From Escherichia coli (GTDB lineage: Bacteria; Pseudomonadota; Gammaproteobacteria; Enterobacterales; Enterobacteriaceae): 64,000 nucleotides of DNA. A program made the position numbers and the translations under genes. The notes under the pieces were generated by a model. That model was not told the origin of the DNA and did no database searches. It saw only the letters and a program-made list of their open reading frames with translations. Positions 1 through 51,680 of this stretch are shown piece after piece; position 1 is the stretch's first letter; each line of letters starts with the position of its first letter. The stretch lies in the NCBI RefSeq assembly GCF_003019035.1, contig NZ_CP027447.1, one strand, 5' to 3'.

Positions 1-2560
1 GTTCCGCGCGCGTCTGGAAAAAGGCGAAGTGCTGGATAACTTGATCCCGGAAGCCTTCGCTGTGGTGCGTGAAGCCAGTAAGCGTGTTTTTGGTATGCGT
101 CACTTCGACGTTCAGTTACTCGGCGGTATGGTTCTTAACGAACGCTGCATCGCCGAAATGCGTACCGGTGAAGGTAAAACCCTGACCGCAACGCTGCCTG
201 CTTACCTGAACGCACTAACCGGTAAAGGCGTGCATGTAGTTACCGTCAACGACTACCTGGCGCAACGTGACGCCGAAAACAACCGTCCGCTGTTTGAATT
301 CCTTGGCCTGACTGTTGGTATCAACCTGCCGGGCATGCCAGCACCGGCAAAGCGTGAAGCTTACGCAGCTGACATCACTTACGGTACGAACAACGAATAC
401 GGCTTTGACTACCTGCGCGACAACATGGCGTTCAGTCCTGAAGAACGTGTACAGCGTAAACTGCACTATGCGCTGGTGGACGAAGTGGACTCCATCCTGA
501 TCGATGAAGCGCGTACACCGCTGATCATTTCCGGCCCGGCAGAAGACAGCTCGGAAATGTATAAACGCGTGAATAAAATTATTCCGCACCTGATCCGTCA
601 GGAAAAAGAAGACTCCGAAACCTTCCAGGGCGAAGGCCACTTCTCGGTGGATGAAAAATCTCGCCAGGTGAACCTGACCGAACGTGGTCTGGTCCTGATT
701 GAAGAACTGCTGGTTAAAGAAGGCATCATGGATGAAGGAGAGTCTCTGTACTCTCCGGCCAACATCATGCTGATGCACCACGTAACGGCGGCGCTGCGCG
801 CTCATGCGCTGTTTACCCGAGACGTCGACTACATCGTTAAAGATGGTGAAGTTATCATCGTTGACGAACACACCGGTCGTACCATGCAGGGGCGTCGCTG
901 GTCCGATGGTCTGCACCAGGCAGTGGAAGCGAAAGAAGGTGTACAGATCCAGAACGAAAACCAGACGCTGGCGTCGATCACCTTCCAGAACTACTTCCGT
1001 CTGTATGAAAAACTGGCGGGGATGACCGGTACTGCTGATACCGAAGCTTTCGAATTCAGCTCCATCTATAAGCTGGATACCGTCGTTGTTCCGACCAACC
1101 GTCCAATGATTCGTAAAGATCTGCCGGACCTGGTCTACATGACTGAAGCGGAAAAAATTCAGGCGATCATTGAAGATATCAAAGAACGTACTGCGAAAGG
1201 CCAGCCGGTGCTGGTGGGTACTATCTCCATCGAAAAATCGGAGCTGGTATCAAACGAACTGACCAAAGCCGGTATTAAGCACAACGTCCTGAACGCCAAA
1301 TTCCACGCCAACGAAGCGGCGATTGTTGCTCAGGCAGGTTATCCGGCAGCGGTGACTATCGCGACCAACATGGCGGGTCGTGGTACCGATATTGTGCTCG
1401 GTGGTAGCTGGCAGGCAGAAGTTGCCGCGCTGGAAAATCCGACCGCAGAGCAAATTGAAAAAATTAAAGCCGACTGGCAGGTACGTCACGATGCGGTACT
1501 GGCAGCAGGTGGCCTGCATATCATCGGTACCGAGCGTCACGAATCCCGTCGTATCGATAACCAGTTGCGCGGTCGTTCTGGTCGTCAGGGGGATGCTGGT
1601 TCTTCCCGTTTCTACCTGTCGATGGAAGATGCGCTGATGCGTATTTTTGCTTCCGACCGAGTATCCGGCATGATGCGTAAACTGGGTATGAAGCCAGGCG
1701 AAGCCATTGAGCACCCGTGGGTGACCAAAGCGATTGCCAACGCCCAGCGTAAAGTTGAAAGCCGTAACTTCGACATTCGTAAGCAACTGCTGGAATATGA
1801 TGATGTGGCTAACGATCAGCGTCGCGCCATTTACTCCCAGCGTAACGAACTGCTGGATGTCAGCGATGTGAGCGAAACCATCAACAGCATTCGTGAAGAT
1901 GTGTTCAAAGCGACCATTGATGCCTACATTCCGCCACAATCGCTGGAAGAAATGTGGGATATTCCGGGACTGCAGGAACGTCTGAAGAACGATTTCGACC
2001 TCGATTTGCCAATTGCCGAGTGGCTGGATAAAGAACCAGAACTGCATGAAGAGACGCTGCGTGAGCGCATTCTGGCGCAGTCCATCGAAGTGTATCAGCG
2101 TAAAGAAGAAGTGGTTGGTGCTGAGATGATGCGTCACTTCGAGAAAGGCGTCATGCTGCAAACGCTTGACTCCCTGTGGAAAGAGCACCTGGCAGCGATG
2201 GACTATCTGCGTCAGGGTATCCACCTGCGTGGCTATGCACAGAAAGATCCGAAGCAGGAATACAAACGTGAATCGTTCTCCATGTTTGCAGCGATGCTGG
2301 AGTCGTTAAAATATGAAGTTATCAGCACGCTGAGCAAAGTTCAGGTACGTATGCCTGAAGAGGTTGAGGAGCTGGAACAACAGCGTCGTATGGAAGCCGA
2401 GCGTTTAGCGCAAATGCAGCAGCTTAGCCATCAGGATGACGACTCTGCAGCTGCAGCTGCACTGGCGGCGCAAACCGGTGAGCGCAAAGTAGGACGTAAC
2501 GATCCTTGCCCGTGCGGTTCTGGTAAAAAATACAAGCAGTGCCATGGTCGCCTGCAATGA
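1..2560 (+). CDS. secA: Preprotein translocase ATPase SecA (5' end truncated by window edge)
   Basis: Open frame continues from position 2 with no start; translated product matches SecA including the C-terminal zinc-binding tail [14 protein letters not shown]; stop at 2558-2560. Confidence 0.97.
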
Positions 2561-2579
2561 AAGCTAACAGTTGAAGTAA

Positions 2580-2606
2580 AAGGCGCAGGATTCTGCGCCT
2601 TTTTTA
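2580..2606 (+). terminator. Intrinsic terminator-like hairpin downstream of secA
   Basis: GC stem ggcgcag / tgcgcc with short loop followed by a 6-T run, 20 nt after the secA stop. Confidence 0.6.
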
Positions 2607-2619
2607 TAGGTTTAAGACA

Positions 2620-3018
2620 ATGAAAAAGCTGCAAATTGCGGTAGGTATTATTCGCAACGAGAACAATGAAATCTTTATAACCCGTCGCGCAGCAGATGCG
2701 CACATGGCGAATAAACTGGAGTTTCCTGGCGGTAAAATTGAAATGAGCGAAACGCCGGAACAGGCGGTGGTGCGTGAACTTCAGGAAGAGGTCGGGATTA
2801 CCCCACAACATTTTTCGCTATTTGAAAAACTGGAATATGAATTCCCGGACAGGCATATAACTCTGTGGTTCTGGCTGGTCGAAAGCTGGGAAGGGGAGCC
2901 GTGGGGTAAAGAAGGGCAACCCGGTGAGTGGATGTCGCTGGTCGGTCTGAATGCCGATGATTTTCCGCCAGCCAATGAACCGGTAATTGCGAAGCTTAAG
3001 CGCGTGTACGTCGGATAG
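2620..3018 (+). CDS. mutT: 8-oxo-dGTP diphosphatase MutT (Nudix hydrolase)
   Basis: 132-aa ORF; Nudix box GGKIEMSETPEQAVVRELQEEVGI; RBS-like aagaca upstream of ATG. Confidence 0.95.
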   Translation: MKKLQIAVGIIRNENNEIFITRRAADAHMANKLEFPGGKIEMSETPEQAVVRELQEEVGITPQHFSLFEKLEYEFPDRHITLWFWLVESWEGEPWGKEGQPGEWMSLVGLNADDFPPANEPVIAKLKRVYVG

Positions 3019-3044
3019 GTGTTTATGCCGCATCCGACATTTGC

Positions 3045-3100
3045 ACACGATGCCTGATGCGACGCTGCCCGCGTCTTATCAGGCCAGCGTCGCATCAGAC
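3045..3100. repeat. REP-like extragenic palindromic element(s)
   Basis: gcctgatgcgacgctg...cgcgtcttatcaggcc plus inverted copy cagcgtcgcatcag; typical enterobacterial REP palindromic unit between mutT and yacG. Confidence 0.7.
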
Positions 3101-48465: not shown

Positions 48466-48772
48466 AATAATCCTTGAATAATATTCCATGAGTTTAACTT
48501 TAATCAGCCCCCCTCAAGCAGGAAGTCCCGAGAAAGAAAAGGTGAATGGTTTGTTAATGATGGATGTTTGGATTTACCGAATGTAACATCTGTTCATCAT
48601 TAGGGGAGTATTGTGCACATTTAATATTAAATATCCACTTAATTCAATTTTAAGTAAAACTAAATATATAATGTGACGATAATGGTGTATATGGGCGGGG
48701 CTGCCAAGTGGGGTAAAATATTATATGTTTATGATTATATTCTGGGGCGAATTAATTGCAATTGTGGGAAGG

Positions 48773-49291
48773 CTATTTTCGGAATTTATTTATATTTGCA
48801 ACACTATTGTATTGCCATTTATTTAATTCATCGAATTTATTTATTCGTAAAAAGTTGTCTAATACTGTCCCATCAGGAAACACTAACTTCGGCGCAATTT
48901 CAAACAGTGGCCACAGCATAAAGCCACGATTTTTCATATCGTAGTGCGGAACGGTCAGACGTTCGGTATTTATTACTTCATTACCAAACAGCATGATGTC
49001 GAGATCCAGCGTGCGCGGTCCCCAGCGTTCAGCTTTACGGACGCGACCTTGCTGCAATTCGATACGTTGTGTGTGATTGAGTAGCTCTTCAGGGGCAAGA
49101 GTGGTTTCCAGCGCGACGGCGGCATTTAAGTAATCGGGTTGATCTTGCGGCCCCAGCGGTGGGGTGCGGTAAAACGAAGAAACAGCAAGAATGCGGCTTT
49201 CTGGAATATCGCCTAATGCTTTCAGGGCAGCATTGACCTGCTCCAGCGGAGAGGCCAGATTGCTGCCTATGGCAATATACGCCACTGTCAT
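48773..49291 (-). CDS. folK: 2-amino-4-hydroxy-6-hydroxymethyldihydropteridine pyrophosphokinase
   Basis: 172-aa ORF starting [12 protein letters not shown]; start overlaps pcnB stop (ATGA); 3' end extends into AT-rich DNA. Confidence 0.92.
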
Positions 49292-50685
49292 GCGGTACCC
49301 TCACGACGCGGTGCGCGTTTGCGTGGACGACGAGTACGACGACGCGGTGACGGTTCTTCATCCAGTTCGTTAAGCATCCCTTTTTGGTCTGGCGGCGCGG
49401 AAACCTGGAACTCACCCCACCATTTCACCAGACGTTGCAGTTCAGCGTTACGCTCAACTTCGGCTCGTAAGGCCAACAGGTCGTATGCCGCACGGAACTT
49501 AGGATGCTCCAGCAGTTTCCATGCGCGTTTTCCCTGACGACGGGACATACGCAACTGCAACTGCCAGATATCGCGAGTTAGCGTAGTCAGACGTTTCGGG
49601 ATCGCCAGTGAACGGCAGGCTTCGTCCAGCACGTCGTTCATCGCCAGTGCGAAAGCGTCGTGATAGGTCAGGCCGCTCTCCTGAGCAATTTTCTGTGCCG
49701 TCTCCAGCAGTGGATACCAGAACATGGCGGCAAACAGGAACGCCGGGTTCACGCGCATATCGTTATGGATACGCGTATCGGTATTCTTCAGCACCTGTTC
49801 AATGATCCGCTCCATCGGGCTGTCGCCATTTTCCGTGAAGTAGCGGGTAATGGTCGGGAACAGCGGCTGGAACAGATGATATTCACACAGCAGCTTATAA
49901 GTTTCGTAACCGTAGCCCGCTTGCAACAGTTTCAGCGATTCTTCAAACAGACGTGCCGGTGGGATATCGTTCAGTAAGGTTGCCAGGCGTGGGATCGGCT
50001 CGGCGGTTTCCGGGCTGATGCGCATGCCCAATTTGGCGGCAAAACGAACCGCGCGAAGCATCCGTACCGGATCTTCACGGTAGCGCGTTTCCGGGTTACC
50101 AATCAGACGGATAACGCCGTCTTTCAGATCCTTCATGCCGCCAACGTAATCACGGACGGTAAAATCTGCCACGCTGTAATACAGGCTGTTGATAGTGAAA
50201 TCGCGGCGCTGGGCGTCTTCTTCGATGGAGCCGAAAATGTTGTCGCGCAGCAACATACCGTTTTGCCCGCGTTGGGAGGTCGTGCGGTCGCTGACGTTAC
50301 CTTCGTGATGTCCACGGAAGGTCGCAACTTCGATAATCTCCGGGCCAAACATCACATGAGCCAGACGGAAACGGCGACCCACCAGGCGGCAGTTACGGAA
50401 CAGTTTGCGCACCTGCTCTGGCGTGGCGTTGGTGGTCACGTCAAAATCTTTCGGCTTTTTGCCAAGTAACAGGTCGCGCACGCCGCCGCCAACCAGCCAG
50501 GCTTCGTATCCCGCTTTATTGAGCCTGTACATTACCTTCAGGGCATTTTCACTGATATCTTTGCGGGAAATAGCATGCTGCTCACGCGGGATCACCGTCA
50601 CCTGTGGACGGGCGACTGCCTGTTCAGCCTCGCTTTCCTCGCGGCTTAGCACCTTGCGGCAAAAATTAGCGACTCGGGTAAAAAT
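49288..50685 (-). CDS. pcnB: Poly(A) polymerase I
   Basis: Start assigned to the AUU codon encoding the I of ...[10 protein letters not shown] (established non-canonical start), 465 aa; ORF-track frame extends 7 codons further upstream. Confidence 0.9.
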
Positions 50686-50744
50686 AGTACACCTCGGTAG
50701 TGTCAAACATCATTCAGGACAAAAAAATAGCGGCTAATCATAGC

Positions 50745-51641
50745 TCAGCATGACGCATTTGAGAATGTTGAATTTACAATTGCCGACTCAGGCACGGCAG
50801 TCAGCGTCCAGTTTTTGACGGCTGACTGAAGGATTTGCTCGACGCTGAAATCCTGCCAGTGTGTTTCTACCTGCTGACCCAGAAAATGAAGTGCCGCGAT
50901 TAACACCGGGCGCGGATCGCCTTTCGGCAACGCAGGCGCATGATTCTGCTTGGAAAGTTTAGCGCCTTGTGTGTTAAGCGCCAGCGGTAAATGAATGTAA
51001 TCTGGCACTTTCCAGCCAAAAAGCTGGTACAGCGAGATTTGTCGCACTGTCGGTTCAATCAAATCTGCCCCACGAACAATTTCTGTGACGTCCTGGAAGT
51101 GATCATCGACCACCACCGCCAGGTTATAGGCAAACAAACCATCACGACGATGAATAATAAAATCTTCTTGCGCCAGTTTTTCGTCGGCGTGAATAATTCC
51201 GCGTAGTTGATCAGTAAACTGCGTGACCGGATGCAACTGCCGAATTCGCACAGCCGCGTTGTCTGGTCCATGATGCAAATCCCGGCAATGACCGTCGTAA
51301 ATACCGCCAATGCTTTGAATACGCGCACGCGTGCAGGTGCAGTAATAACTTAGTCCTTGCTCATATAACCAGGCGAGTGCTTCGCGATAGGCGTGGTGAC
51401 GTTGCGATTGCCAGAGAACGTCGCCGTCCCAGTGCAGGCCGTAATGTTCCAGCTGGCGCAGGATAGTCTCTGCGGCACCGGGAACTTCACGAGGCGGGTC
51501 GATATCTTCTATGCGTACCAGCCAGCGACCTTGCCGGGCGCGAGCCTGTAAATAGCTGCCAAGCGCGGCAATCAGAGAGCCAAAATGAAGCTCGCCGGAA
51601 GGAGAGGGGGCGAAGCGACCAATATAGTGTGTGTCTGTCAT
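50745..51641 (-). CDS. gluQ: Glutamyl-Q tRNA(Asp) synthetase
   Basis: Start placed at [22 protein letters not shown] (298 aa) because the dksA terminator hairpin lies just upstream; a 308-aa form starting at 51671 is the alternative. Confidence 0.85.
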
Positions 51642-51650
51642 CTCTTTGAA

Positions 51651-51680
51651 CAAAAAATAAGGCGGGAGCATTTCCCGCCT
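51651..51680 (-). terminator. Intrinsic terminator downstream of dksA, upstream of gluQ
   Basis: On minus strand: ggcgggaaatgctcccgcc hairpin followed by TTATTTTTTG. Confidence 0.8.

Follow-up and report, generated by a model that had tools for sequence, protein, structure and literature searches.

Translation of pcnB, the gene for poly(A) polymerase I (PAP I), almost certainly begins at an AUU codon (50685..50683, minus strand), and not at the upstream UUG reported by an ORF finder, within the 64,000-nucleotide stretch of Escherichia coli DNA analyzed here (the window). This start is already known, having been published in 2002, and is reflected in RefSeq. The first-pass annotation had proposed AUU initiation from the sequence, and the proposal is supported by four independent lines: the RefSeq annotation, the Shine-Dalgarno (SD) sequence, comparative data and the literature. 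AUU is the first codon of the conserved protein, no canonical in-frame start is able to encode its N-terminus, an SD sequence lies at a working distance, and the start is more strongly conserved than an isoleucine codon would have to be. The case matters only as a check on annotation: ATT is not a permitted start for ORF finders or for most gene callers, with the result that pcnB receives a wrong start (the TTG at 50706 here, other codons elsewhere).

Gene identity and annotated start

Of 5426 complete E. coli genomes, 5424 contain the pcnB region (1701 nt), and many of these match it with 100% identity. Gene order, taken from the RefSeq annotation of identical and nearest genomes, is sfsA-dksA-gluQRS-pcnB-folK-yadN, so that pcnB is flanked by gluQRS upstream and by folK immediately downstream, the folK start overlapping the pcnB stop. 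The 465-aa product scores 997.1 bits against the NCBIfam PcnB equivalog NF008634, for which the curated cut-off is 702 bits, and the alignment covers positions 1-468 of the 469-position profile with residues 1-464 of the protein. RefSeq/PGAP annotates a pcnB of 1398 nt and 465 aa (WP_010723084.1) that begins exactly at the ATT (50685), a start that was checked both in FDAARGOS_497, which is 100% identical over the region, and in the K-12 derivative GM4792. The PAP I structures 3AQK, 3AQL, 3AQM and 3AQN derive from truncated constructs that begin at residue 28 or 29 of 465, and are silent on the native N-terminus.

The mechanically generated ORF list gives a single ORF for this gene, 49288..50706 on the minus strand, with a TTG start and 472 aa. 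In gene orientation, the sequence around the start reads ...cctgaa TGA tgt TTG ACA CTA CCG AGG TGT ACT ATT TTT ACC CGA GTC GCT AAT TTT TGC CGC AAG GTG CTA... (Table 1). The first-pass annotation, whose interval 50665..50706 spans the mechanical TTG through codon 7 of the real CDS, had described a conserved N-terminus opening at ATT, no in-frame ATG nearby, and an ORF running seven codons upstream to a non-ATG start. All three descriptions hold. The frame contains no ATG between the upstream TGA and codon 52, and to this account should be added the strand, which is minus, and a downstream in-frame GTG at codon 12 (hereafter GTG12, with ATG52 for the codon 52 ATG). Within the same operon, the ORF track and RefSeq also differ on the start of gluQRS, which the former places at an ATG at 51671 (308 aa) and the latter at 51641 (298 aa), both on the minus strand.

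Table 1. Features around the pcnB start, in window coordinates
Feature	Position	Strand	Basis or remark
pcnB CDS, correct annotation	49288..50685	-	Encodes poly(A) polymerase I in 465 codons, stop not counted; RefSeq CDS of a 100%-identical genome maps here
ATT initiation codon of pcnB (probable)	50683..50685	-	Sequence and cross-species invariance
Shine-Dalgarno GAGGTG, 4 nt 5' of ATT	50690..50695	-	Perfect 6-nt complement of 5'-CACCUC-3' (16S rRNA 3' end)
TTG opening the mechanical ORF; not the start codon	50704..50706	-	7 codons 5' of ATT; within TTGACA hexamer 50706..50701
In-frame TGA closing the pcnB frame upstream	50710..50712	-	Sequence; ATT lies 9 codons after TGA
In-frame GTG, codon 12; rejected rival start	50650..50652	-	Its use would drop conserved N-terminal residues
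First in-frame ATG, codon 52	50530..50532	-	Start proposed by Liu & Parkinson 1989; possible minor short isoform from pS1
Sigma-70-like promoter TTCTCA-17-TATGAT	50737..50765	-	Consensus scan; straddles gluQRS stop codon
gluQRS, upstream neighbor	50745..51641	-	RefSeq annotation mapped to window; stop codon 50747..50745, 59 nt before pcnB ATT

Promoter, ribosome-binding site and leader

A promoter consensus scan of the region found only the upstream TTCTCA/TATGAT pair, and a terminator scan between gluQRS and pcnB found none. The pair is probably the pB promoter of Binns and Masters, described as the major sigma-70 promoter of pcnB (PMC2939334). Proteus and 70 of the 80 Enterobacteriaceae species compared below preserve its TATGAT(T)AGCCGC block, for which Aeromonas has the variant TATGATAGGCCGC, and the G+C-rich discriminator that follows TATGAT would fit the inhibition of pB by ppGpp/DksA reported in PMC2939334. 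As this promoter lies upstream of both the TTG and the ATT, both would be on the transcript, and the promoter cannot tell them apart. The TTGACA hexamer that contains the TTG was also considered as a -35 box and was rejected by inspection, there being no acceptable -10 box at 16-18 nt.

The sequence just past the gluQRS stop is itself conserved as a block, GCTATGATTAGCCGCTATTTTTTTG (50719..50743, minus strand), which comprises the -10 TATGAT, a G+C-rich stretch and a T run. Of the 80 Enterobacteriaceae species, 70 share it, as does Proteus, while Aeromonas carries the variant GCTATGATAGGCCGCTATTTTTTTG; the sequence between this block and the SD varies freely in length.

Candidate starts were compared by pairing the 20 nt upstream of each with the 3' end of 16S rRNA. 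The predicted duplex energies are -9.8 kcal/mol for ATT, -2.3 for TTG, -0.1 for GTG12 and -4.0 for ATG52. Only the ATT, among the four, has a real Shine-Dalgarno sequence, its value ranking among the best 4% for the region, and the pairing upstream of TTG is no better than that at 68% of positions. This strong pairing of GAGGUG with the anti-SD differs from the description of the pcnB ribosome-binding site as 'poor' in PMC3561954. A GTG inside the SD (50692..50690) opens an out-of-frame ORF of eight codons (VYYFYPSR, stop TAA; 50666..50692, minus strand) that overlaps the pcnB start. We judged it probably incidental: the GTG belongs to the SD, and the ORF is without an SD of its own.

The leader and first 18 codons are predicted to form no stable RNA structure (z = +1.09; 177 of 200 shuffles fold at least equally well), and given this value a regulatory hairpin masking the start is unsupported. 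An Rfam scan of the whole window at gathering thresholds gave no match near pcnB. Elsewhere in the window, gathering-level matches were obtained to the tp2 sRNA (14360..14473, minus strand, 103 bits), to STnc40 (2536..2605, plus strand, 79 bits) and to naRNA4/CssrE (3009..3085, plus strand, 61 bits).

Conservation of the start codon in Enterobacteriaceae

The comparison covers 80 Enterobacteriaceae loci from one scan of species-representative genomes, with protein identities of 86-100%. The codon aligned to the ATT is ATT in every one of the 80 species, and GAGGTG occupies positions -10 to -5 in all of them. The 4-nt spacer between the two takes 10 different sequences, so the invariance of the start site does not merely reflect a lack of divergence. 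Moreover, each of the 13 other invariant isoleucine columns uses two or three isoleucine codons, as against ATT only at the start, and the neighboring folK starts with ATG in 38 of these species and with GTG in 30, which argues that start codons are able to vary at this evolutionary depth. These comparisons point to a constraint on the ATT beyond the need to encode isoleucine.

The same alignments bear on the upstream UUG, translation from which would yield a protein of 472 aa with the extra residues MTLPRCT. This UUG is the first canonical start past the in-frame stop, it lies downstream of the predicted promoter and hence within the transcript, and the introduction of PMC3561954 gives UUG as the codon at which pcnB initiates. 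However, it lacks an SD, a TTG at -7 codons is found in only 26 of the 80 species, and in 43 of 80 there is no in-frame ATG, GTG or TTG at all from the nearest upstream stop to the ATT. The distance from the TATGAT block to the ATT also ranges from 36 to 72 nt across species, in all three phases, and leader indels of this kind argue that the upstream extension is not coding. RefSeq does not start at the UUG, and the later literature settles on AUU. Initiation at the UUG is thus very improbable. In Salmonella enterica subsp. diarizonae and arizonae (loci L021 and L022; locus 1480..1482), an in-frame ATG replaces the E. coli TTG (GTATGACACTACCGAGGTGCGCT ATT); it is without a visible purine-rich SD-like sequence upstream, and gene callers will choose that ATG.

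Downstream of the ATT, the alignment reads as coding sequence: residues 2-12 are invariant as protein across the 80 species, and where codons 2-11 vary at the nucleotide level, at five sites, the change is always a synonymous one at the third position.

Distant relatives

Loci from beyond the Enterobacteriaceae were drawn from chromosome records mislabelled as plasmids. These PLSDB entries (NZ_OL790812.1, NZ_AP026896.1, NZ_CP119142.1, NZ_OL790696.1 and others) are 'plasmids' of 2-5 Mb that are evidently whole chromosomes, including Proteus (4.09 Mb), Aeromonas (4.94 Mb), Neisseria (2.17 Mb) and E. coli (4.8 Mb), and they form a trap for plasmid statistics.

The Proteus mirabilis gene, whose PcnB has 64% amino acid identity, begins TTCGAGGTGTCAT ATT TTT AAC CGA GTA GCG CAT, and that of Aeromonas caviae (60% identity) begins AACGAGGTGTACC ATT TTT TCC CAG ATC GCA AAC, so that GAGGTG-N4-ATT-TTT is retained in both. 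In codons 2-11 they have changed chiefly at third positions, with a few amino acid replacements, one double change (CGA to CAG), and neither indels nor stops, a pattern that coding sequence should show; codon 12 in Proteus is TTG, not GTG. In more distant Proteobacteria, PcnB is orthologous and folK lies downstream, as in E. coli, but the start differs: pcnB has an ATG start in Amphritea and Neisseria, a TTG with an AGGAG SD in Acinetobacter, and an annotated TTG in Legionella. The AUU arrangement is therefore specific to a lineage, represented in this sample by Enterobacterales and Aeromonas, and is not shared by all pcnB genes. Overall, the comparative data are a clean confirmation of the start, with ATT and GAGGTG-N4 invariant in the Enterobacteriaceae, kept in Proteus and Aeromonas, and absent in the four more distant genera.

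These relatives also help to weigh a second canonical rival, GTG12, use of which would give a protein of 454 aa and turn the conserved stretch upstream of it into non-coding regulatory sequence. GTG12 is kept in 80 of 80 Enterobacteriaceae species, and codons 1-9 are near-invariant even at synonymous sites, a pattern readable as non-coding conservation. Against this, GTG12 has no SD, and the confinement of five out of five variable sites in codons 2-11 to synonymous third positions has a chance of ~(1/3)^5 = 0.004. The codon is not kept in Proteus, the Proteus and Aeromonas changes follow a mostly third-position pattern, and the PcnB equivalog model includes residues upstream of it. A start at GTG12 is exceedingly improbable, and AUU is preferred on this comparison as well.

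Synonymous constraint at the 5' end

The block from the SD to codon 9 (~50695..50659) has a mean synonymous codon entropy of 0.15 across the 80 species, against a gene mean of 0.96 (sd 0.19), and is the lowest window in the gene. No such 5' synonymous constraint is found in gluQRS or folK; dksA has one. This conservation exceeds what an AUU and an SD should require, and it is conceivable, if doubtful, that it marks an undescribed cis-acting element on the pcnB mRNA, either a sequence context that AUU initiation needs or a site to which a trans-acting regulator binds. A likelier cause is ordinary selection to keep the initiation region unstructured and A/U-rich in a gene whose output depends on so marginal a start, since no stable RNA structure is predicted in the block and Proteus and Aeromonas vary in codons 2-9.

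A second synonymous trough lies at codons 33-41 (50563..50589, minus strand; ~0.31 against the gene mean of 0.96), a short way 5' of ATG52 and within the stretch to which PMC2939334 assigns pS1, the promoter proposed by Liu and Parkinson, which that paper locates downstream of the AUU codon. The trough and the weak SD before ATG52 would suit the production of an additional, shorter PAP I from ATG52 via pS1 as an internal sigma-S promoter, an arrangement compatible with full-length protein from the AUU. pS1 is active in vitro and under special conditions in vivo, anti-PAP I Western blots give two bands, and the PS1.rev primer of the same study covers ATG52 (PMC2939334). The authors of that study nevertheless regard the short isoform as unproven and unlikely under normal growth, and ATG52 is not conserved across the 80 species. 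We consider such an isoform unlikely, and in any case an addition to the AUU-initiated product.

AUU initiation and PAP I levels

The first-pass annotation had also stated that the AUU start keeps PAP I levels low, and this is supported by literature citing Binns and Masters (2002). PMC2939334, PMC3561954, PMC5499595, PMC4245954 and bioRxiv 10.1101/063800, all of which cite that paper, state that E. coli pcnB has an AUU start and that this limits PAP I synthesis. Binns and Masters (2002; Mol Microbiol 44:1287), as cited in PMC2939334, PMC3561954 and PMC5499595, are reported to have proved experimentally, in K-12, both the N-terminus and the effect of changing the start codon. PAP I is present at ~30-50 molecules per cell (PMC3561954).

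A route from start codon to low PAP I can be proposed. The transcript probably starts a few bases past the conserved TATGAT box, just downstream of gluQRS, which would leave a leader of ~45 nt. The strong GAGGUG SD, 4 nt upstream, would then position the 30S subunit on the AUU, with which the initiator tRNA would pair imperfectly. According to the literature, AUU is a near-cognate codon that supports roughly 1-2% of the initiation of AUG and is discriminated against by IF3. So weak a start keeps PAP I scarce, and the cell is spared the toxicity that comes with PAP I overproduction and excess polyadenylation.

On the E. coli chromosome, AUU initiation is confirmed for one other gene, infC, which encodes IF3, and its near-cognate start likewise makes expression IF3-sensitive (PMC5499595; bioRxiv 10.1101/063800). 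The two are the only confirmed non-canonical starts in E. coli according to bioRxiv 10.1101/063800, which puts AUU at 1-2% of AUG; PMC5499595 and PMC4245954 make the same statement on infC and pcnB as the two genes with non-canonical starts, and PMC5499595 treats IF3-dependent discrimination as a general property of such starts. The systems differ in that infC is autoregulated, its product being IF3, whereas the role ascribed to the AUU of pcnB is to limit a toxic enzyme constitutively. The TIR sequences of infC and pcnB are not known to be related.

On conservation, PMC3561954 holds that phylogenetic evidence suggests AUU starts in many Proteobacteria, and the original paper reportedly noted the conservation too. 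PMC3561954 is inconsistent on the codon itself, its introduction naming UUG and its discussion AUU. The UUG is a trace of an older assignment, and shows that the upstream codon was once entertained.

Variation within E. coli

The 31-mer TACCGAGGTGTACTATTTTTACCCGAGTCGC, which covers the SD, the ATT and codons 2-5, occurs exactly in 5420 of the 5426 complete E. coli genomes, and four genomes with pcnB differ from it; the feature is thus neither a product of chance nor peculiar to one strain. Versions of the 31-mer with ATG, GTG, ATC or ATA at the start have zero matches in the 5426 genomes. Identity over the 101 nt centered on the ATT is 99% or higher in every one of the 5424 genomes with pcnB, whereas over the gene region as a whole most genomes reach only 95-99%. 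A sequencing error or a pseudogene could be invoked to explain why a canonical start is missing, but nothing beyond the unusual codon favors this reading. The exact 31-mer is near-universal in E. coli, the ATT is found in 80 other species, and the reading frame is unbroken, with a score of 997 bits for its product in the PcnB equivalog model. We give this reading no credence.

In K-12, pcnB (b0143) is 100% identical over the 101 nt at the start, encodes the same protein (WP_010723084.1) and lies in the same synteny, dksA-gluQRS-pcnB-folK. The strain sequenced here shares this start site without being K-12; among complete genomes SCU-301 is the closest to it, and its folK 3' end is a rare allele. 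At the 3' end of folK and in the folK-yadN spacer (48600..48900, minus strand), the last ~25 codons depart from the allele usual in E. coli, and the folK ORF encodes 172 aa in place of 159 aa, a gain of 13 codons. Only two of the 5426 complete E. coli genomes, SCU-301 (100%) and GF131 (98%), have this 301-nt stretch, which looks like the result of a recombination breakpoint inside folK, beside the variable yad fimbrial operon.
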